Assembly (NCBI GenBank): GCA_045863855.1
Contig: BTVV01000165.1
Location: 1 to 11,771, forward strand
Direction of reading: 5' to 3'
Origin: Planctomycetota bacterium
GTDB lineage: Bacteria > Planctomycetota > SZUA-567 > H5-PLA8
Length of the DNA stretch: 11,771 nucleotides
Shown here: positions 1 to 11,771 of the stretch, piece by piece
How the letters are laid out: every line of letters starts with the position of its first letter
How positions within the stretch are numbered: position 1 is the first letter of the stretch
The notes under the pieces: model-generated
What the model saw: the letters and a program-made list of their open reading frames with translations, nothing else
The model's database searches: none
What the model was told of the DNA's origin: nothing
Translations under genes and position numbers: made by a program

Positions 1-1444
1 TGTAGTAATAGAGGCTGATCACGCTATTCAGGCCCATCACGACCACCAGCAGCCAGTTCCCGGCGGATGCCAGTTCGAGCATGATCAGGTATTTGCCGAT
101 GAAACCCGCCAGCGGCGGCATGCCCGTGAGGCTGAACAGGAAGATCACCAGCGCCGTGCCCAGCAACGGTTCGCGCCGGATCGTTCCGCGCAGCTTATCG
201 AGATCGCAGCTTCCGCGTATGTTCTCCAGCGCGACCAGCACCAGGAAGGCGCCGAGGTTCATCAGCAGGTACACGACAAGGTAAAAGAGAACCGCCGCCG
301 CTCCGTTGGCATTGGAAAGCGCAGCCAGCCCGGCCAGCATGTACCCGGCGTGCGCGATGGAACTGTACGCCAGCATGCGCTTGGCGTTGCTTTGGCCCAG
401 CGCCGCTAGGTTCCCGATCGTCATCGTAAGGATTGCCACCACGGCGAGAATCTTCTCGGCGGTCAGGAAATTGAAGCCTTGGTCATCGATGTCACCGATG
501 GGGAAGAAGGCGGCGATCACTCGCACCAGCACCGCGAATCCGGCGGCCTTGGGAACCACGCTGAAGAATCCGGTGGCCGTGGTCGGCGCGCCTTCGTAGA
601 CGTCGGGCGCCCAATAGTGGAAAGGCACCGCGGCGATCTTGTAGAGCAGCCCCGCGAAGACCATGGCCAGCACCGCCGCCAACGCGCCGCGCGTGTGCGG
701 AGCGTGACCGGCTTCCAGGCCGCGGAATTGCGCAGCGACCTCGTCGAGATTCAGCGTGCCCGTCAGCCCGTACAGGTACGAAATGCCGAAGATCATGATC
801 CCGCTGGCCATCGCGCCGTACATGACGTATTTCAGGCCCGCCTCGCTCGACTTGCGGTCGCAGCGCAGGAAGCCCGCCATTGCGTAGCTTACGATCGAGA
901 GCGATTCCAACGAAAGGTACAGCATCAGCAGATTGGTCGAGCTGGCCAGAAACATCCCGCCCAGGCACGTCGCCGCCAGGAGCAGGATGAACTCCCCGCG
1001 ACCGTTGGACTCGAGTTCCTTGGCGTTCAGCGCGATCAGCACTGTGACGATGGTGCCCAGCAGCAGCACGAATTTTACGAAGGTGCCGAACGAGTCGCGT
1101 ACGACCATCTTGCTGTAAATGAAGTCTTGGCTGGTCATGTCGGTGTTGCGAGTAACGGTAACGGTCGCGCCGTCTCGGCCCGTCGAATAAACCGTAACCG
1201 CCTGATCCAGGCTGCCGACGTACGCCTTCATGTCGTTTACATTGACCCACAGCGCAAGAAGCAGGCCGATCAGCAGCACATACGTGCCCGTCTTGCGGCG
1301 TTCGGCATTCTCGGCATCCCTGGCAGGGAGCGCCAATTCCACCACGAGCCCGAAAATGAAGGCGAGCGCCACCATCACCTCGGGCAGGATCAGGCCGAGG
1401 TCGGTGGCATTGCGGGAGAGCAGTTCGGCGAAGCCTTGGGGCAT
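1..1444 (-). CDS. nuoN: NADH-quinone oxidoreductase subunit N (partial; 3' end beyond window start)
   Basis: Not in the ORF track. Manual translation from ATG at 1444-1442 (MPQGFAELLSRNATDLGLILPEVMV...) is open to position 2. Motifs: LYLSLESLSIVSYAMAG, RKSSEAGLKYVMYGAMASG, LYKIAAVPFHYWAPDVYEGAPT, KRMLAYSSIAHAGY, FSLTGMPPLAGFIGKY, NSVISLYYY. Starts 11 nt after the nuoM stop. Confidence 0.96.
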   Translation of the reverse strand, partial: MPQGFAELLSRNATDLGLILPEVMVALAFIFGLVVELALPARDAENAERRKTGTYVLLIGLLLALWVNVNDMKAYVGSLDQAVTVYSTGRDGATVTVTRNTDMTSQDFIYSKMVVRDSFGTFVKFVLLLGTIVTVLIALNAKELESNGRGEFILLLAATCLGGMFLASSTNLLMLYLSLESLSIVSYAMAGFLRCDRKSSEAGLKYVMYGAMASGIMIFGISYLYGLTGTLNLDEVAAQFRGLEAGHAPHTRGALAAVLAMVFAGLLYKIAAVPFHYWAPDVYEGAPTTATGFFSVVPKAAGFAVLVRVIAAFFPIGDIDDQGFNFLTAEKILAVVAILTMTIGNLAALGQSNAKRMLAYSSIAHAGYMLAGLAALSNANGAAAVLFYLVVYLLMNLGAFLVLVALENIRGSCDLDKLRGTIRREPLLGTALVIFLFSLTGMPPLAGFIGKYLIMLELASAGNWLLVVVMGLNSVISLYYY

Positions 1445-1455
1445 GGGGCGGCTCT

Positions 1456-3660
<2,205 letters not shown>

Positions 3661-3709
3661 GTCGTGACTCCACGAGAAGCTCCGGACGCCCCATGCGGGG
3701 CTCCGGCGA

Positions 3710-6028
3710 CTACACCATCATCAGCACCAACAGCACCACCGCCACGGCGCCGAACGTCAGGCACACATAGTACTGAATCCGTCCGGCCTGCAGCGTCCGC
3801 GCCACCGTGCCCAGCATCCACGTCGCCACGCCGAACGCATCCACGCACTTGTCCACGAACCACGTGTCGATCGCGCTGGATACCCGCGCGATCGAACGCA
3901 CGAAGTACGCCCACCCGTCCACCAGGATCTGGTCGATCACGCCAAAATCGAAGACGTAGAACATCCGGTTCAGCGATTTTGCGAAGGGCACGATCCCGTC
4001 CTGGTACAACCGGTCGAAGAACCAAAGCTGCGCGCAGAGCTGCCACGCCAATCCCAAGGTGGCCGGATTCCGCTCGAGCAGCCGGTCCACGTCGATCTTC
4101 TTCGAACCGTACATCAGCCAAGCCAGCAGCGCGCCCAGCACCATGCCCAACACGGACAAGCCCGTCGCCCAAACGTGCGCGACCCCGTGCAATTTGTAGT
4201 GCTCGGCCCCATGCCCGCTTTCCACTATGTGCCGCAGTTCTTCCCCACGCACAGGGGACGTCATCGTGGCATTCAGCCAGCCTTGCGCTTTTTGAATCAA
4301 CTCGCCCTGCTTATCCACGTACGGTGCCTCCAGCTTCGGCGTGCCGAAGGCAATCAGGTCCCCGCCGATCAGATGGCTGCTCCACCAGAAACCCAGGCAG
4401 CCCACCGCGAGAATCAGGAGCGGAACGGTCGCGATCGGCGGCGATTCGTGGCAGTGCTCGTAGACGTGCTTGTCGCGCGGCTCGCCGAAGAACGACCAGA
4501 AGAGCATCCGGCACATGTAGAACGTGGTCAGCGCCGCAGTGAGCTGGCCAAGCACGTACGGCGCCCAGTGCAGCCGCCCTTCGCCCAGCGCCTTCTCGAG
4601 CGACGCGGCGAGAATCATGTCCTTGCTGAAGAAGCCGCTGAACCCTGGGAAGCCGATGATTGCCAGCACACCCGCGCAAGTGGCGATAAAGGTGAGCGGC
4701 ATCTTCTTGCGCAGCCCGCCCATGCGGTTCATGTCTTGCAGGTGGTGGCAGGCGTGGATCACGCTGCCGGCGCACAGGAAGAGCATGCACTTGAAGACCG
4801 CGTGCGTGTACAGGTGCGCGACGCCCGAGGTGTAATTCCCCGAGCCCAGCCCGATCATCATGTAGCCCAACTGCGAAATAGTGCTGTAGGCCAGGACGGC
4901 CTTGATATCCCACTGCACCATCGCCATCGTCGCGGCCAGAAAGGCGGTGATCCCGCCGATCATGGCGACGAAGAAGAGCGAACCCTCGGTGAGCAGCGGA
5001 TGGATGCGCGCGGTCATGTACACGCCTGCGGCCACCATCGTCGCGGCGTGGATGATCGAACTGCCCGTCGTCGGGCCCTGCATCGCGTCGGGCAGCCACG
5101 AATGCAGCGGGAACTGCGCGCTCTTGCCGATCGCGCCCATGAACGTGAGGATCCCGGCCAGCGTCAGGAGTTCCACCCCCGTAAACGCGCAGCCGAAGAG
5201 TTTGATCGTGACTTGGTCGAAGGCCCCGGCCGACTTGGCGGCGTACAGCGTGCCGAAATCCAGGGGCGAATTCGCGTAGCCGTTGGCCTGGTTGGCCACG
5301 CACAGCATCGTGGTCAGGAAAAGCATGATCCCGGCCATGAACCCGAAGTCGCCGATGCGGTTCATGACGAAGGCTTTTTTCTGCGCGTGCGCCGGCGACA
5401 AATAGCGTTCGTCGATGCCCGTCGCGTAAGGCGCTTTCAACTCCTGGTAATGGTGATCCTTGGAAACCGTGGGCTTGTAGAACCAGAACCCGATCAGGAA
5501 GTAACTGCCCAAGCCGACGAGCTCCCAGAAGACGAAGGTCATCAGCAGGTTGCTGCTGAAGACGATGCCCAGCATGGCGAAGCAGAAAAAGCCCATGAAA
5601 GCGAAGTAGCGGCGGTACATGGTATCGCCGTGCAGATAAAAGATGCTGAAGATCAATACCAGCGTCGCGAGGCCCGTGACCACCAGCGCCATGAAGGTCG
5701 AGAGGTTATCGACCAAGAGCCCCAGCGAGAATACGCCCGCCGGACCGAAGTTCATCCACGACGCGGAGACGACGAACGGCTTGGCCTGCGCCTGCGCCCA
5801 GCCTTCGTGGTCCGCTCCGCCGGCCCGCAGATTGACCGTAAAGAGCACCACCGAAAGCAGGAACGCGATGCCCATCAGCCCGATGGCGAGGTAGTCGGCG
5901 CCCTTATCCAGCTTGCGTCCCGCGAAAAGCAGAATGGCGAAGGTCAGCAGCGGCAGGAACAGAATCGCCAACGGCGCCCAGGTGAGTACCTGGATTTCGG
6001 TGCCGTAGACTTGACTGAGGGCGTCCAT
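3710..6028 (-). CDS. nuoL: NADH-quinone oxidoreductase subunit L (772 aa, elongated lateral helix)
   Basis: Motifs FWELVGLGSYFLIGFW, KKAFVMNRIGD, GKSAQFPLHSWLPDAM.GPT, HAATMVAAGVY, KAVLAYSTISQLGYM, THAVFK.MLFL.AGSVIH, GFFSKD, and a C-terminal amphipathic helix ending LQAGRIQYY followed by a final TM helix. Confidence 0.97.
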   Translation of the reverse strand: MDALSQVYGTEIQVLTWAPLAILFLPLLTFAILLFAGRKLDKGADYLAIGLMGIAFLLSVVLFTVNLRAGGADHEGWAQAQAKPFVVSASWMNFGPAGVFSLGLLVDNLSTFMALVVTGLATLVLIFSIFYLHGDTMYRRYFAFMGFFCFAMLGIVFSSNLLMTFVFWELVGLGSYFLIGFWFYKPTVSKDHHYQELKAPYATGIDERYLSPAHAQKKAFVMNRIGDFGFMAGIMLFLTTMLCVANQANGYANSPLDFGTLYAAKSAGAFDQVTIKLFGCAFTGVELLTLAGILTFMGAIGKSAQFPLHSWLPDAMQGPTTGSSIIHAATMVAAGVYMTARIHPLLTEGSLFFVAMIGGITAFLAATMAMVQWDIKAVLAYSTISQLGYMMIGLGSGNYTSGVAHLYTHAVFKCMLFLCAGSVIHACHHLQDMNRMGGLRKKMPLTFIATCAGVLAIIGFPGFSGFFSKDMILAASLEKALGEGRLHWAPYVLGQLTAALTTFYMCRMLFWSFFGEPRDKHVYEHCHESPPIATVPLLILAVGCLGFWWSSHLIGGDLIAFGTPKLEAPYVDKQGELIQKAQGWLNATMTSPVRGEELRHIVESGHGAEHYKLHGVAHVWATGLSVLGMVLGALLAWLMYGSKKIDVDRLLERNPATLGLAWQLCAQLWFFDRLYQDGIVPFAKSLNRMFYVFDFGVIDQILVDGWAYFVRSIARVSSAIDTWFVDKCVDAFGVATWMLGTVARTLQAGRIQYYVCLTFGAVAVVLLVLMMV

Positions 6029-6061
6029 ACGTATTCCGTCGTCCGTGGGTGCCTGTCCAAC

Positions 6062-6439
6062 CTACATCCGCAATTCGTCCACGCGGTCCATCTCGATGCT
6101 CCGGTGCGTCTGGAAGACCGCGAGCACCAGCGCCAACGCCACCGCCGCTTCCGCGGCCGCCAGCACGATGATGAACAGCGTGAAGATCTGCCCGTCGAAG
6201 CCGTGGTAACCGGCTTGATGTCCGTTGAAGCGCGCGAAGGCGACGAAGTTGATGCCCGAGGCGTTAAGGATCAATTCCACACCCATCAGGATGCCCACCG
6301 CGTTCTTGCGGCTGACCATCGCGAAGATGCCCAGCGCGAACAGCAGGCCGCCCAGAATCAGGTAGTTAAACAGATGGTCCGGCCCGGAACTCAACAGGCC
6401 CCGGTCGGCCAGCAAGAGGCTCTGCGCGAAGGCGTCCAC
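6062..6439 (-). CDS. nuoK: NADH-quinone oxidoreductase subunit K
   Basis: Three hydrophobic segments, RKNAVGILMGVELILN and AAAEAAVALA with both conserved Glu residues. GTG start lies 1 nt after the nuoJ stop. Confidence 0.95.
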   Translation of the reverse strand: MDAFAQSLLLADRGLLSSGPDHLFNYLILGGLLFALGIFAMVSRKNAVGILMGVELILNASGINFVAFARFNGHQAGYHGFDGQIFTLFIIVLAAAEAAVALALVLAVFQTHRSIEMDRVDELRM

Positions 6440-6440
6440 G

Positions 6441-6983
6441 TCAGCGGGTCTCCTTGCGCACGATCGCCACCGCGCCCACCAGCGCGGCCAGGATCAAGAT
6501 CGAAGCCACCTCGAACGGCAGGAGGTACTCGCCCAGCAGCACGTGCCCCAGCGCGACTTCGCCCGGCGCGGCACTGACCGTCGTGCGGTACGCCGCATCG
6601 GCGTGCGCGTTCGCTTCCGCCAGCGGCACCTGCAGCCGGTTGATCAACATGATCGTCGCGGCCAGCACCACCCCGGCCACCAGCGCGCCCCCGCCCAGCG
6701 CCAACCACGTCCGGCGCGGCTCGACCGTACCTTCCTGCGTATGCGCTGAGAACATGATCGCGAACATCACCAGCACGATAATGCCGCCGACGTACACAAT
6801 GAGCTGCACCGCCGCCAGAAAGTCCGCATGCAGAAAGATATAGATCCCCGCCACACCCAGGAACGCCACCGCCAGCGCGAACGCCGCATGCAGGATGTTC
6901 CGCGCCACTACCACGAAGGTTGCGGCGGTCACGGTCATCAACACCACGATCCAAAAAAGCAGGGTCGCCAGCATGGAATGCAT
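6441..6983 (-). CDS. nuoJ: NADH-quinone oxidoreductase subunit J
   Basis: Motifs NILHAAFAL, L.ADFLAAVQLIVYVGGIIVL.MFAIM, EYLLPFEVASILILAALVGA. Start uncertain: ATG 6983, ATG 6974 or GTG 6995. Confidence 0.93.
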   Translation of the reverse strand: MHSMLATLLFWIVVLMTVTAATFVVVARNILHAAFALAVAFLGVAGIYIFLHADFLAAVQLIVYVGGIIVLVMFAIMFSAHTQEGTVEPRRTWLALGGGALVAGVVLAATIMLINRLQVPLAEANAHADAAYRTTVSAAPGEVALGHVLLGEYLLPFEVASILILAALVGAVAIVRKETR

Positions 6984-7056
6984 CGCCCGGACCACGGCAG
7001 CCCGCGCCTCGGCGCGGCCCGCCTATCCCTGAGGTGAGAAGCAAATGAAGCAGCCG

Positions 7057-7084
7057 AATATAGCCGCCTGCCACACGCCTGCAA
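7057..7084 (-). promoter_or_regulatory. Putative sigma70-type internal promoter for nuoJKLMN
   Basis: Minus strand TTGCAG (7084-7079), 16-nt spacer, TATATT (7062-7057). Lies downstream of the nuoI terminator and ~75 nt upstream of nuoJ. Visual match to consensus only. Confidence 0.45.
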
Positions 7085-7161
7085 GCAACTCAACCACTAA
7101 TCGGGGAAGATGCTTAGCCGCACGCAACGCATCGTGCAGGCGTAAGCGCAAAAGTGGCTCC

Positions 7162-7197
7162 AAACGAAACAGCCCGGCGATTGAGCCGGGCTGTTTT
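7162..7197 (-). terminator. Intrinsic (rho-independent) terminator after nuoI
   Basis: Perfect 12-bp inverted repeat AAACAGCCCGGC (7167-7178) / GCCGGGCTGTTT (7185-7196) with a 6-nt loop. On the minus strand it ends in TTTCGTTT, ~22 nt after the nuoI stop. The plus strand also ends in TTTT, so it may be bidirectional. Confidence 0.7.
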
Positions 7198-7218
7198 CGC
7201 ATCGTGCGTGCTCGAATT

Positions 7219-7965
7219 CTAGCTGGCCGGCGGCGGTGCATCGCCGGCAGGCTTGGCGTCCGCGGTACCTTCGGCCGGCTTGGCTTCGGCGGCGGGCTTC
7301 GGCGCAACGGCTGGCTTGGCGGCAGCTGGCGCCGCGGCGGGCTTCGCGGCAGCCGCGGCTTTGGCGGCGGCGGCCTTCTTGGCCGCGGCTTCGGCCGTTT
7401 TGATGCGCTTCTCTTCGGCCAGCCGGATACGCATCTTCTCGGTCTTGATCTTCTCGTCGTCGGCGTAGAAGCCCACGCCGAACTCGCGGATGAGGCCGTG
7501 CAAATTCGAGCGCCCCCCCGTGGTGTCGGGCGTGCCGGCGCGCGTGGAACCCCACCACTCTTTCGTCATCGTCAGGCAGCCGGTCGGGCAGGCGAAGACG
7601 CACAGCCCGCAGTACATGCACTTGAGGATGTCGATGTCGAAGCGGCTGGGGCGCCACTTGTTCGAGACGGTTTTTTCGCCGTCGATGAAGAAGCAGTCGA
7701 TCGGGCAGGCCTTCGAACAGTTGCGGCAGACGATGCAACGCTCGATGTCGTTGTGCAGGTGTCCGCGGAATCGGTCGGCCACCTTCACTTCGCCGCGCGT
7801 CTGCGCCGATCCGTCCCACGTAACCGTATTCGGCGCAATGTCGTCGTCGACCTTTCCGCCGATGTTCTCCATGACCATGTTCTTGCCGAGGTAACCGCCG
7901 GTCACCTTCATGCCGACCATGAAGGACTTGACGCCGTCGTAGATGTCGCGAACGAAGTCGATCAT
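7219..7965 (-). CDS. nuoI: NADH-quinone oxidoreductase subunit I (2x[4Fe-4S]) with Lys/Ala/Pro-rich C-terminal tail
   Basis: DRFRGHL, CIVCRNCSKACP and CMYCGLCVFACP ferredoxin-type motifs. Located between nuoH and nuoJ. SD AGGAG at 7980-7976. Confidence 0.94.
   Translation of the reverse strand: MIDFVRDIYDGVKSFMVGMKVTGGYLGKNMVMENIGGKVDDDIAPNTVTWDGSAQTRGEVKVADRFRGHLHNDIERCIVCRNCSKACPIDCFFIDGEKTVSNKWRPSRFDIDILKCMYCGLCVFACPTGCLTMTKEWWGSTRAGTPDTTGGRSNLHGLIREFGVGFYADDEKIKTEKMRIRLAEEKRIKTAEAAAKKAAAAKAAAAAKPAAAPAAAKPAVAPKPAAEAKPAEGTADAKPAGDAPPPAS
7222..7398 (-). repeat. Low-complexity Ala/Lys/Pro repeat (AAAK/KPAA units) in the nuoI 3' end
   Basis: Encodes AEAAAKKAAAAKAAAAAKPAAAPAAAKPAVAPKPAAEAKPAEGTADAKPAGDAPPPAS. 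Recurrent (g)gctt / gccgc units in the DNA. Confidence 0.8.
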
Positions 7966-8007
7966 CGCTGCCGTTCTCCTGCACGCCGCTGCCGGCGGCC
8001 GCCCTGC

Positions 8008-9546
8008 TTAAAACTTGGTGCCCTGCGCGATCACGTTGCCTTCCACCAGCAACTTGCGCGACTTCTGCTCGTCGGGCGAAAGTTTCTTGAAGCCGAACCA
8101 CCAGATGATTCCGATCGCGCTCAATACGCAGACCGCGCAGGAAATCCCCGCCGTGGCGTTGTTCAGCGCATCCGCGCCGTACTTTTCCGCGACGTAAGGG
8201 CGCACCAGCATCCAGCCGGACACACCCACCAGACAGGACATGCCCAGCGGGATCAGCTTCTTCCAGCACAGCGTCATCATCTGGTCGACGCGGAAACGCG
8301 GGAGCGTCCAGCGAATCCACATCATCACGAAGACCAGCGCGTAGGTCTTGATCAGGAATGCAGCCAGATGCATCAGCGATCCCCAAATACTGAAGATCGG
8401 CGCGGTAGCGACCAAGCCCGTGGCGGGATTAATCTCACCGGGCCGAACCTGCATCGCCCAGTTTTCGAGAGGCGCAATGCCCGTCGACCACCCGCCCAGG
8501 AAAATCGTCACCGCGATCGCGCATGTGACGCACATCATCGCATACTCGGCCATGAAGAAGAACGCGAAGCGCATCCCCGAGTATTCGGTGTGGTAGCCGG
8601 CCACGAGTTCGGATTCCGCCTCGGGAATATCGAACGGCGTGCGGTTGCACTCGGCCAGCGCCGCAAGGTAGTAGACCGGGAAGAGCACGAACATGAACGG
8701 GCTGGAGAAGACGTTCCAATTCCAGGCCCAGCCTTCGCTCCATCCGGCCCCGTCGAAGCCGAACTGCGCGACCGTCATGCCCTGCATCGACATCGTGCCG
8801 CTGATCACGATGCCGGTCAGGAGCGCCAGCCCCACCGGGATTTCGTAGCTGACGATCTGTGCGGCGCTGCGCATGCCGCCCAGGAGCGCCCACTTGTTGT
8901 TCGAGGCCCAACCTGCCATCAGGATTCCGATCGCTTCGATGCTGGTAATCGCCGCGATGTAGAAAACGCCGATGTTGAAGTCCGCGATGTAGAAGCGGTC
9001 GCTGTACGGCAAGGCCGCCAGCGCGCCAAAGGCCGAGGCCAGCACGATGGTCGGCGCCAGCTTGAACATCGGCTTATCGGCCGCGGCCGGGACCAGGTCT
9101 TCCTTCATGATCAGCTTGATGCCGTCGGCCAGGAAGATCAGCAACCCCGGCAGCCATCGTCCCAGTGTGGCGTCGAGGAGTTTGAAGACGCCCACCAGCG
9201 GCGCGGCGATTTGGGCGAAGAGTTTCTCGCCGGGCCGAGCATTGGGGCGGCCGGCGCGTTCGATGGCTTCCGAGAAGACCGCGCCTAGGAAATTGCTGGG
9301 CTGGCACTGATTCGGTCCCACGCGGCGCTGAATGTCCGCCGCGACCTTGCGCTCGATGTACGTGCTCCCGCCGGCCACCGCCTGAATCAGCCCGAAGGCG
9401 ATCAGGACCGGAATCAGAGCGGCGATCACCACGGCCACCGTCTCGGGCTGGACGTGTATCCAGACCATGCCAAAGAGCTTGACGATGGCATCCACCACCC
9501 ACCGGCTCGCCTCGCCTTGCAGCAACCACTCGTACAAAGGAACCAT
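8008..9546 (-). CDS. nuoH: NADH-quinone oxidoreductase subunit H (512 aa, with insertions)
   Basis: Motifs ERKVAADIQRRVGPN, ADGIKLIMKED, GWASNNKWALLGGMRSAAQIVSYE, AECNRTPFDIPEAESELVAGYHTEYSG, WIRWTLPRFRVDQ...WKKLIP. Confidence 0.97.
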   Translation of the reverse strand: MVPLYEWLLQGEASRWVVDAIVKLFGMVWIHVQPETVAVVIAALIPVLIAFGLIQAVAGGSTYIERKVAADIQRRVGPNQCQPSNFLGAVFSEAIERAGRPNARPGEKLFAQIAAPLVGVFKLLDATLGRWLPGLLIFLADGIKLIMKEDLVPAAADKPMFKLAPTIVLASAFGALAALPYSDRFYIADFNIGVFYIAAITSIEAIGILMAGWASNNKWALLGGMRSAAQIVSYEIPVGLALLTGIVISGTMSMQGMTVAQFGFDGAGWSEGWAWNWNVFSSPFMFVLFPVYYLAALAECNRTPFDIPEAESELVAGYHTEYSGMRFAFFFMAEYAMMCVTCAIAVTIFLGGWSTGIAPLENWAMQVRPGEINPATGLVATAPIFSIWGSLMHLAAFLIKTYALVFVMMWIRWTLPRFRVDQMMTLCWKKLIPLGMSCLVGVSGWMLVRPYVAEKYGADALNNATAGISCAVCVLSAIGIIWWFGFKKLSPDEQKSRKLLVEGNVIAQGTKF

Positions 9547-9578
9547 CGGTGCTCGTCCCGCTCTAAGAGTTGTTCGCA

Positions 9579-9602
9579 GTCCGTGCCCGATCGAGCACGG
9601 AC
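9579..9602 (-). other. 24-nt inverted repeat / mRNA stem-loop between the lipoprotein gene and nuoH
   Basis: GTCCGTGCCCGATCGAGCACGGAC. The only imperfect pair is a C-A mismatch on the plus strand but a G-U wobble on the minus (transcribed) strand. No U tract follows. Confidence 0.55.
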
Positions 9603-9642
9603 AGCCGTTTCATGCAAGCCCGCTTCGAAGGCCTGAAAGCGC

Positions 9643-9915
9643 TTACTTGTCTGCCGTGACCACGGTGACGACCTTGTCGCCGGCAATGGTCACCACCACG
9701 ATCCCGTCCGAACACTTGTACTTCCACACTTCGCCGCTCAACGGGCCGATGCCACCGGCGTTCATCTCGTCCGGCTTGCCCAGTGCCGATTCCATGTCGG
9801 CTTTCGTCTTAATGTCCTTGGCCTTCTCGTACACCGACTGCTTGCCGCCGCGGCCGCACCCGGCCAGCGTGCACGCCAACACCAACACGGCGAACCACTT
9901 ACTCCATCTGCGCAC
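9643..9915 (-). CDS. Small lipoprotein (90 aa), SmpA/OmlA (BamE/OsmE)-like fold suspected
   Basis: Strong SD GGAGGAG 5 nt before GTG at 9915, preferred over the track start at 9942. Signal peptide MRRWSKWFAVLVLACTLAG|C has a perfect LAGC lipobox. The mature part has TKADMESALGKPD...EVWKY followed by beta-strands. The CDS and lipoprotein call are strong; the family call is tentative. Confidence 0.8.
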   Translation of the reverse strand: MRRWSKWFAVLVLACTLAGCGRGGKQSVYEKAKDIKTKADMESALGKPDEMNAGGIGPLSGEVWKYKCSDGIVVVTIAGDKVVTVVTADK

Positions 9916-9955
9916 AGGAACTCCTCCGTTAATTTTCCGCACCCAGCCTCGCGGC

Positions 9956-11164
9956 TCAGCGATCCACTTCGGGAAGCACGATGTCGAAACTGCCGATCAC
10001 GGCGATCACATCGCCGATCATCAAGCCGCGCGTTACCTTTTCGAAGATGCCTAGCGCCGAAAAGCTGCCGGTGCGAATCTTCAGGCGCAGCGCGCAATCC
10101 GTTCCGTCGCTCACGCAGTAGTACCCCGTCTCGCCGCGCGGATTCTCGCTGCGCACGTAAACCTCGCCGGGCTTGATCTTCAGGCGCGCGGGAAGCTTAG
10201 CCTGATACTGCCGGTCGGGATGGTCGGCGGGCAGCTTCTCGGTTTCTTTCAGCTTGTCGACCACCTGGCGCAGAATCTTGAGCGACTCGAAGACTTCCTT
10301 CACGCGCACCACGAAGCGGTCGTAGCAATCGCCCAGCGTCCCTTGCGGGTTCGAGCCGTTGGGATCGCCGCCGTCGCCGACGGGCACGTTGAATTCGAGC
10401 TGGTCGTAAATGCTGTACGGTTCGTTTTTGCGCAGATCCCACTTCACGCCGCTGCCGCGCAGATTGGGCCCGACAAGCCCCCAGTTAATCGCATCTTCGG
10501 GCGAGACGATCCCGACGTTGCAAAGCCGCTCCTGGAAGATCGAGTTTCCGGTGATCAAATCGTTGAACTCGACCATGCGCGGATGCAGGTAATCGATGAA
10601 GCGGTCGCACTTCTCGATGAAGCCGGGCGGCGCGTCGTAGCTAACCCCGCCGATGGTGTAGTAGTTGTAAGTCAAGCGTGCGCCGCAGACTTCCTCGAAC
10701 AGGTCGTTCACGCGCTCGCGGTGGCAAATCCCGTGCAAAAACGGGGTGTACGCGCCCATGTCCATCGCCAGTGCGCCGATGCAGATCATGTGGCTGCTGA
10801 TACGATTGAGTTCGCCGCAGAGCACGCGGAGCAGTTCGGCGCGAAGCGGAAGCTTGTAGCCGCCCAGCGCTTCGACGCCCAGCGCGTAGGCGTAGTTCGA
10901 ATTCATCGAGCAGAGGTAATCGACGCGGTCGGTGTAGGGCATGAACTGGCGGTAATCGACGTACTCGCCGATCTTCTCGATCGCGCGGTGCAGGTAGCCG
11001 ATGTCGGGGCGTGCGCTGACGACGACTTCGCCGTCGGTCACGACCTCCAGCCGCAGCACACCGTGCGTCGACGGGTGGTGCGGCCCCATCGAAAGGACCA
11101 TCTCCTCGGCATGCACGCGCTGCGTGCTGCCCGACGGAGTCAAAACGCTTTGTGCATCGGACAT
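9956..11164 (-). CDS. nuoD: NADH-quinone oxidoreductase subunit D
   Basis: MGPHHPSTHGVLRL (quinone-site His pair), IGYLHRAIEK, DRVDY (quinone-site Tyr), ELNRISSH, GP.LRGSGV.WDLRK.EPY, ENPRGE.G.Y, C-terminal DIVLPEVDR. No NiFe-binding CxxC motifs. Confidence 0.97.
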   Translation of the reverse strand: MSDAQSVLTPSGSTQRVHAEEMVLSMGPHHPSTHGVLRLEVVTDGEVVVSARPDIGYLHRAIEKIGEYVDYRQFMPYTDRVDYLCSMNSNYAYALGVEALGGYKLPLRAELLRVLCGELNRISSHMICIGALAMDMGAYTPFLHGICHRERVNDLFEEVCGARLTYNYYTIGGVSYDAPPGFIEKCDRFIDYLHPRMVEFNDLITGNSIFQERLCNVGIVSPEDAINWGLVGPNLRGSGVKWDLRKNEPYSIYDQLEFNVPVGDGGDPNGSNPQGTLGDCYDRFVVRVKEVFESLKILRQVVDKLKETEKLPADHPDRQYQAKLPARLKIKPGEVYVRSENPRGETGYYCVSDGTDCALRLKIRTGSFSALGIFEKVTRGLMIGDVIAVIGSFDIVLPEVDR

Positions 11165-11235
11165 GCGGCTCGTTCCCGTGGCTGGCCGCGGCCCCGGTCG
11201 GGCGCGGCGTACGGCCTCGACGTTACTGGCTTCGT

Positions 11236-11771
11236 TCAGCCTTCCTTCTTGTCCTCGGCTCCGGCGGCGGCCGGCTTATGCTTGGCCTCTTCCGCCATCT
11301 CCTTCTTCACTTCGGCGGTCAAACGGTCCACCAGCTTCTTCTCTTCCTCTTCGCGCGCGGCGATCTCGCGGCGCACCGCGTCGGCGAAATACTGATGCAG
11401 CCGCGTCGTCGGAATCCCCTGGTACTCCTTCGGATACTCGAAATCCTTGCGCCCCGGATGCCCTTCCCAATCCGGCGGATTAAGAATGCGCCGCAGATCC
11501 GGGTGGCCCATGAACTTGATCCCGTACAAGTCGAACGCCTCGCGCTCGAAAAAATCCGCCGCGCCCCACAAGTCGCTGACCGTATCCACTTCGGCGTGGT
11601 CGCGATCCAGCACCGCCTTGACGATCACCTTATGCAGGTGCTTGAAGCTGTGCAGAGGGTAAACGACCCAGAGCGTCCAGCCGTTATCGGCGCCGGCCAG
11701 CGACATCAGGCTGTCGAAGGCCAGTTCGGGGTCATCCTTCAGGTAGCGCAGGATCGCCTTGTTGTGCGCGG
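11236..11771 (-). CDS. nuoC: NADH-quinone oxidoreductase subunit C (partial; start beyond window end)
   Basis: The frame is open to the window edge (AHNKAILRYLKDDPELAFDSLMSLAGAD...), so the track start at 11706 is internal. Motifs W.AADFFEREAFDLYGIKF.GHPDLRRIL.P.DWEGHP.RKD. Separate from nuoD, not fused. Confidence 0.95.
   Translation of the reverse strand, partial: AHNKAILRYLKDDPELAFDSLMSLAGADNGWTLWVVYPLHSFKHLHKVIVKAVLDRDHAEVDTVSDLWGAADFFEREAFDLYGIKFMGHPDLRRILNPPDWEGHPGRKDFEYPKEYQGIPTTRLHQYFADAVRREIAAREEEEKKLVDRLTAEVKKEMAEEAKHKPAAAGAEDKKEG

Follow-up and report, generated by a model that had tools for sequence, protein, structure and literature searches.

A duplicated docking module in the NuoL lateral helix of a planctomycete complex I locus with a single nuoM

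The window, an 11,771-nucleotide stretch of DNA from a Planctomycetota bacterium (assembly GCA_045863855.1), is the entire contig BTVV01000165.1 and carries on its minus strand most of a complex I (nuo) operon. We find that the NuoL encoded there has a lateral helix lengthened by a second copy of one 26-27-residue NuoM-docking module, and that this nuoL is followed by a single nuoM. The best single reading, to which we give an even chance, is that the membrane arm would be built as L-M-M-N, with the product of the single nuoM gene used twice. An earlier note on this DNA had proposed such a double use among other options; the length of the helix does fit four antiporters, but rival explanations remain. 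Below, G-numbers denote genomes (the window's genome is G000), C contigs (the window is G000:C165), L loci and P homologous proteins of this analysis.

Two docking modules in one lateral helix

Positions 3782-4015 (minus strand) encode NuoL residues D672-G749. The span D672-Q747 measures 76 residues, compared with 51 in the second NuoL of the same genome (G000:C50) and 47-53 in short-helix homologues; the alignment thus does not give the canonical length that would have spoken against the earlier note, and the extra ~27-residue repeat it described is real. Two copies of the motif F-D-x-x-V-[IV]-D-G-x-V-[ND] are present; they begin 27 residues apart, at D694 and D721, and 26 more residues lead from D721 to Q747. 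The earlier note had counted three units (D672, D699 and D726): the module is indeed duplicated, but there are two copies and not three, and their register starts at D694 and D721. D672 is the ordinary anchor found in every NuoL and not a copy of the module. A canonical three-antiporter complex I has one module in a span of ~50 residues, whereas the window NuoL has two.

The duplication is, as judged from the DNA, old, because no repeat of that period survives: Tandem Repeats Finder, run over positions 3600-4200, found no array of the module period. A recent tandem duplication is ruled out by this missing repeat together with the low identity between the two modules.

Comparison with 267 aligned homologues, which were picked by likeness to the query and so do not give natural frequencies, reveals spans that rise stepwise: 47-53 residues (n = 53), 66-73 (n = 14), 74-80 (n = 190) and 101-103 (n = 4), the remainder being fragments or unaligned. 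Since the spans cluster in discrete steps, the length of the helix is not a matter of chance. Among 180 sequences with a span of 74-77, the aspartates of both modules are nearly invariant (D694, 98%; D699, 99%; D721, 98%; D726, 100%), as are the anchor residues that follow (Q747, 98%; G749, 99%; Y754, 99%). Long-helix proteins are 35-45% identical, yet the helix length is fixed. The Q-x-G..Y anchor with the terminal transmembrane helix (TM16) is shared by long and short forms.

The 14 forms of intermediate length are rich in proline (2.21, compared with 0.12 in long forms) and have, from their sequences, the appearance of module decay. Such decay can be followed stepwise in a sister group (P0049, P0056, P0058, P0063, P0066-P0073 and kin, some named Fibrobacterota), where the module turns into a proline-rich loop with spans of 73-66 and then 53. 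Three intact modules, with a span of 101-103, are found in L311 (G421:C5), L312 (G361:C27), P0156, P0176 and P0191; in G361, nuoN lies 65 kb away. Oversized NuoL proteins with large soluble inserts also occur: L046 (G017:C328), a short-helix orthologue of the window nuoL, is 958 residues long, and L291 (G070:C5) ~1220.

An AlphaFold2 monomer model from a 148-row alignment (mean predicted local distance difference test score, pLDDT, 93.7) predicts an unbroken, amphipathic helix over residues 668-747, followed by TM16. By block, the helix scores 84-95 up to residue 740 and 63-71 around its end; this run replaced an earlier one with 14 rows, in which the helix pLDDT was below 50. The predicted straight course is weak evidence against a bulge, because the model is of a monomer and AlphaFold has a tendency to render this helix as straight.

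Superposition on E. coli 3rko pairs model residue 693 with E. coli residue 563 at a root-mean-square deviation of 1.9 Å over ~550 residues, and over the solved chains Z is 43-46. The solved NuoL-type helices run out near model residue 720-725; consequently, module 2 and TM16 overshoot them by one module. The long helix in one piece is absent from the solved NuoL-type chains (17 PDB hits). A helix of 26-27 residues computes to ~39-40 Å. Pyrococcus 6U8Y, for which two antiporter-type chains show up in the structure matches, is presumably an enzyme with two antiporter subunits. Between it and the three-pump cyanobacterial NdhF1 the helix gains 25 residues (PMC11794437), and on account of this step we take the length of one module to be one subunit's worth.

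In Paracoccus, D648 of the helix binds H239/Y315 of Nqo13, the NuoM homologue, and is required for stability and not for coupling, the helix being structural rather than a coupling rod (PMC9802314). In the alignment, D648 matches the leading Asp of either window module, and H382 and Y458 of the window NuoM lie at the same distances from the TM7 lysine as the Paracoccus pair. By alignment, the key residues of this NuoM are intact (E143, K375, H382, H389, K406, Y458, E548); its charged axis (E143/K375/K406/E548) has the Paracoccus spacing from K375 onward, and the L and N motifs are present as well.

A single nuoM beside the long helix

The order nuoL-nuoM-nuoN with one nuoM, as the earlier note had it, stands for the window and is seen in full in two genomes of the same genus, G002 and G001 (8 and 6 contigs), where the whole cluster reads ABCD-lipoprotein-HIJKLMN without nuoEFG. 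In both, the operon ends at nuoN and the flanks on either side hold no antiporter-like gene; a nuoM hidden past the contig end is ruled out by these complete operons. A search of G000 and the same-genus genomes found no nuoM beyond those of two L-M-N sets, and none downstream of nuoN in G002 and G001.

Counts per genome extend this observation. A Pfam PF00361 search of five genomes returned six antiporter genes, equal to two L-M-N sets, in each of G000, G001, G002 and G007, with no spare nuoM or mrpD beyond these sets; the fifth, G005 (88% complete), shows three antiporter genes and the long operon only. A second L-M-N set was also present in 5/5 genomes of another check. In six of 15 genomes the long helix occurs with only L, M and N (G306, G210 and G310, 3/5; G338 and G341, 2/5; G120, 1/5), and the assemblies of G306 and G310 consist almost wholly of a single contig. 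Supply of an extra M from a second operon therefore cannot be general.

The same combination recurs widely. Among 80 named GTDB loci 29 have the long helix; M and N can both be seen in 24 of these, with one nuoM in 21 and two in three. Forty loci from genomes of the Bacteroidota phylum and from Planctomycetota (L131-170) all have one nuoM, and 37 of them are long (L147-149 are short); further Planctomycetota long loci have one nuoM in 20/20 cases. Among the metagenome loci, 47 include nuoN; the helix is long in 18 of these (17 with one nuoM, one with two) and short in 29 (27 with one, two fragmented, none with two). The long-helix profile matched in one piece in 56/151 Planctomycetota genomes and in 57/151 genomes of the Bacteroidota phylum (that of G042).

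In a tree built without the helix columns, the window family nests among long-helix NuoLs, while the adjoining short forms (G017/L046, P0025 and a Fibrobacterota-named group) are derived. Ignavibacteria loci fall within the same long-helix clade, and Melioribacter and Sphingobacterium records carry the long helix. On these sequences, a large NuoL clade (support 99) typically combines a long helix with one nuoM, and the combination also appears in a few other branches. By the same sequence comparison the window locus is not special, and the mismatch between helix and gene number is widespread across many phyla.

All four two-nuoM operons have the long helix, and none of the short-helix operons examined has a second nuoM. 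Three of the four (L086, L094, L108) are placed outside the window's NuoL clade and the fourth, L287, has no tree placement; two nuoM were not found in any placed long-helix operon of that clade.

Fusions of L with M or of M with M were considered for the long reading frames in L108, L291, L298-300 and L304, which proved to be overlapping frames or internal inserts. Two long-helix clusters, L308 (G053:C68) and L055, consist of membrane subunits only (A, H, J, K, L and M, with or without N) and lack nuoBCDI. In six short-helix operons of G042's phylum (L182, L183, L185, L186, L187, L206) a stretch of 1.5-1.8 kb that gives no antiporter match lies between nuoM and nuoN.

Spacing, codon use and the make-up of the arm

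Two further features of these operons concern the expression of nuoM. Overlaps and very short gaps couple the translation of neighbouring genes, and ~20 nt abolishes the coupling (PMC10666635). We compared gaps at loci that have nuoK and no gap above 1 kb, with starts picked by rule that may be off by a few codons. A nuoL-nuoM gap of at most 10 nt was found in 6/75 long operons and 30/69 short operons with one nuoM, against 24/75 and 23/69 at the nuoK-nuoL junction used as control. In the metagenome replicate, sampled after the idea arose, the values were 4/17 long and 20/27 short (control, 8/17 and 15/27). Where the K-L junction is tight, the L-M junction is open in 19/24 long but only 6/23 short operons, and within genomes that carry a long and a short operon, the L-M gap is wider in the long one in 25/32 cases (control, 16/31). 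The two-nuoM operons have a tight junction between nuoL and the first nuoM in 4/4 cases. The open L-M spacer is conserved in the window family; in the window spacer itself we looked for a promoter-like site and a terminator and found neither.

The C-ending codons of Phe, Tyr, Asn and Ile are translationally favoured. They are richer in nuoM than in nuoL plus nuoN in 55/69 long and 34/62 short operons, with flat controls in this set, and in 16/17 long and 16/27 short operons of the metagenome replicate. The codon score is negative in the four operons that lost the module, and no excess of nuoN over nuoL was found. The gap and codon trends in operons with a long helix and one nuoM are new here; as read from the sequences, the wider gap and more optimal codons of nuoM suggest that NuoM is made in excess.

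Under the L-M-M-N reading, nuoM would have a translation start of its own and yield more protein than nuoL and nuoN. The Asp of each module would clamp the His/Tyr pair of one NuoM, and TM16 would dock at the usual NuoN/J/K site. Such an arm would imply an M-M interface and a 2:1 ratio of NuoM, and its four antiporter modules could move five H+ per 2e-. A homodimer prediction with two copies of a compact relative of NuoM (74-row alignment) scored 0.00 and speaks neither for nor against this interface. We further suggest, tentatively and with somewhat less than even confidence, that the NuoL helix acts as a molecular ruler, in which the number of 26-residue modules would set the number of stacked NuoM copies (two here, three in enzymes of the G421/G361 type). 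Three modules beside one nuoM mean either that three copies are stacked or that module number is loose.

Several observations weigh against the double use of NuoM. Neither the gap nor the codon trend survives correction for kinship: most long operons belong to one clade, the tree has seven changes and five supported independent pairs, which are too few, and a sign test is not significant; the tree contrasts favour the gap in 6/7 (one a near tie) and the codons in 4/6. Operons that lost the module keep an open gap (L046, 55 nt; L147-149, 30-58 nt), and both operons of G000 have a 49-nt gap and give nuoM the highest codon score. Codon pairs within one genome favour the long operon in just 16/26 cases, a third set gave 18/28, the control at four-fold sites showed a difference in the metagenome replicate as well (p 0.02), and Shine-Dalgarno strength does not differ outside Bacteroidota (24/41 vs 26/45). 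As to the protein, several Cytophagales long helices are degenerate, and the two three-module genomes with context, G421 and G361, have one nuoM and would need three copies of its product. D721 superposes on the Gln that ordinarily contacts NuoN, and NuoN also has a His/Tyr pair (H276, Y360), so that D721 could bind NuoN instead. In the literature searched, we found neither a structure nor a stoichiometry for an enzyme with a long helix and one nuoM.

The last two structural points lead to the alternative that fares best, which we nevertheless regard as unlikely: the helix would be a longer brace on a three-pump arm, with module 1 on NuoM, module 2 on the His/Tyr pair of NuoN and TM16 ~40 Å further along at NuoJ/K/A/H. 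Such an enzyme would pump four H+ per 2e-, and the gain would be stability, in keeping with the structural role of the Paracoccus helix described above. It needs no M-M interface and accounts for the single nuoM of nearly every long operon. However, TM16 would have to dock at a new site although long and short forms share one anchor, and lineages switch between the two forms without a change of anchor (L046, P0025). A brace also leaves the gap and codon trends unexplained, as well as the confinement of two nuoM genes to long-helix operons.

The L-M-M-N reading must also be set against the relic of a two-nuoM ancestry that the earlier note had considered, which we hold to be improbable. Here an ancestor with two nuoM would have lost one, and the extra module would bulge out or lie on the membrane without a partner. 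Yu et al. raise an 'evolutionary transition toward or away' (PMC9040806), the E. coli helix tolerates insertions of 6-7 residues at some sites (PMC3274701), the module is lost or decaying in several lineages, and three-module helices stand beside one nuoM. Yet the fixed length and the 98-100% Asp conservation in both modules across such divergent proteins, together with the unbroken amphipathic helix predicted for the window, speak against a partnerless module. This idea is further weakened by the tree, since no two-nuoM operon was found among the placed members of the large long-helix clade and the placed two-nuoM operons lie elsewhere.

Very improbable, in our estimate, is a hybrid L-M-M'-N arm whose fourth subunit would be the NuoM that the ordinary complex I on G000:C50 encodes. 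The earlier note had allowed for an antiporter from outside the window; in G000, G001, G002 and G007 just the C50-type NuoM could serve, and a second L-M-N set is present in these four genomes and in the 5/5 of the other check. As a general answer this fails, because the six long-helix genomes with just three antiporter genes have no second M to supply, and G005 shows the long operon alone; moreover, the two NuoMs of G000 are only ~34-45% identical.

We give equally little credence to another filler of the extra 40 Å, whether a second NuoN or a membrane protein unlike the antiporters: the nuoM-nuoN junction is more often open in long operons (tight in 12/69 long vs 25/53 short) and six operons place a hydrophobic hairpin between the modules, but the duplicated motif has the M-type Asp and not the N-type Gln, nuoN shows no codon excess over nuoL, and no extra conserved membrane gene is common to long-helix operons. 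The hairpin, 65 residues long and exactly between modules 1 and 2, occurs in L142 (8041-10302), L143-L146 and L150, with a span of 140 and one nuoM.

The locus, known relatives and what the helix would mean

Coordinates of the features are collected in the table below; nuoN and nuoC are truncated by the contig ends, and the minus-strand order is nuoC, nuoD, a 99-residue open reading frame (ORF), nuoH, I, J, K, L, M and N.

Features of the window (positions 1 to 11,771)
Feature	Position	Strand	Evidence
nuoL, 772 residues, with extended lateral helix HL	3710..6028	-	TIGR01974, 498.8 bits vs cut-off 407.5; AlphaFold2 pLDDT 93.7
HL span D672-Q747, 76 residues (ordinary NuoL 49-53)	3788..4015	-	alignment; unbroken helix 668-747 in AlphaFold2 model
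Module 1, D694-I720 (D694, D699, V703, D704)	3869..3949	-	conservation; superposes on single module of solved NuoL
Module 2, D721-L746 (D721, D726, V729, D730)	3791..3868	-	alignment and conservation
Q-x-G anchor and terminal TM16 (751-771)	3716..3790	-	conservation; DSSP of model
nuoL-nuoM spacer, 49 nt; own Shine-Dalgarno-like GGAG, GC-rich inverted repeat	3661..3709	-	read from sequence
nuoM (single), 734 residues; ~150-residue insert after TM6, C-terminal tail	1456..3660	-	TIGR01972, 560 bits
nuoN, cut by contig end	1..1444	-	TIGR01770, 374 bits
nuoK	6062..6439	-	family match
nuoJ	6441..6995	-	family match
nuoI	7219..7965	-	family match
nuoH, 512 residues, long termini	8008..9546	-	family match
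Lipoprotein-like ORF, 99 residues, at place expected for nuoEFG	9643..9942	-	weak family matches
nuoD	9956..11164	-	family match
nuoC, cut by contig end	11236..11771	-	family match

Close homologues carry Planctomycetota names in their source records. The nuoA and nuoB of G000 lie on contig C272; with these and with the complete clusters of G002 and G001, the operon has the 11-subunit content nuoABCDHIJKLMN without nuoEFG. The second, ordinary complex I of G000 is split between C53 (nuoA-I, including EFG) and C50 (nuoJ-N). Judging by gene content, electron input could be provided in trans by the C53 NuoEFG or by the NuoF-like genes of contigs C14 and C191. A relative ~95% alike covers the operon in 3/4 sequencing runs inspected, seen as contigs only and without level or strand; the sequencing-run matches comprise ten rows with shares of at most 0.19.

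Three features of the locus are recorded as side observations. The lipoprotein-like ORF between nuoD and nuoH is kept in G001, G002, G003 and G012 and was not detected in G007. In NuoH, the Pfam match covers residues 131-440 only, and the long hydrophobic termini may form extra helices close to the arm's end. The soluble insert of NuoM (~2626-3093, minus strand), which by the expected topology would face the periplasm, has no Pfam match and varies in length across the family; it is present in G017.

The combination of insertion and single nuoM is already in print for one family, as the earlier note had suspected. Complex_I_1 and Complex_I_2 of 'Ca. Manganitrophaceae' have the ~26-residue NuoL insertion, canonical gene content and one nuoM, as the window has in canonical order, and are left unexplained by the authors (Yu et al. 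2022, PMC9040806). Those genomes, of a different phylum, also hold a two-nuoM cluster, unlike the window genome; our compared loci include none from Nitrospirota. In the literature searched we found no paper that shows the breadth of the long helix beside one nuoM or tests the stoichiometry.

The 2M complex I is reportedly defined, after Chadwick et al. 2018, by a second nuoM gene. It has a lengthened NuoL helix and, as a hypothesis, a fourth pump and fifth proton, some members lacking nuoEF (PMC9040806, PMC6606698, PMC7117926, PMC7419157). The window NuoL shares the ~26-residue insertion, whereas the window, G001, G002 and the other family loci have one nuoM in place of two. By gene content the window enzyme is not a 2M complex I; it would work like one if the L-M-M-N arrangement holds.

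The 11-subunit type without nuoEFG is known from Ignavibacterium album and green sulfur bacteria, with ferredoxin suggested as donor (PMC3362086). As in the window genome, the gene order there is ABCDHIJKLMN, beside a second, 14-subunit set; the window differs from this type in the lipoprotein ORF and the large NuoM insert. The canonical complex I and NDH-1 structures (E. coli 3rko, Paracoccus 8qby, T. elongatus 6khj) share the NuoL fold and charged axis residues, but have one module, and their helices end ~26 residues earlier.

With assumed midpoint potentials, we compute a yield of 4.2-5.0 H+/2e- for ferredoxin to menaquinone and 2.7-3.3 for NADH to menaquinone. Since only the former allows ~5 H+/2e-, the absence of the N-module would fit a five-proton enzyme: a fifth proton would suit electrons from ferredoxin or another donor of low potential, or electron flow in reverse, towards ferredoxin.

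The pump number of complex I is currently read from gene number. If a brace or relic holds, the lesson is a smaller one: the 26-residue insertion does not indicate a fourth pump. Cultured members of the clade offer a direct test. If the helix is indeed a ruler, a large unrecognised share of bacterial complex I would have four pumps and move five protons, with nuoM overtranslated, and counting genes would not reveal it. If NuoM is used twice, many planctomycetes, Ignavibacteria, Cytophagales, Marinimicrobia and others would have a higher proton yield, or ferredoxin-reducing power, that genome models have missed. Four-pump arms would then need no prior gene duplication, which would change the view of how 2M enzymes arose.

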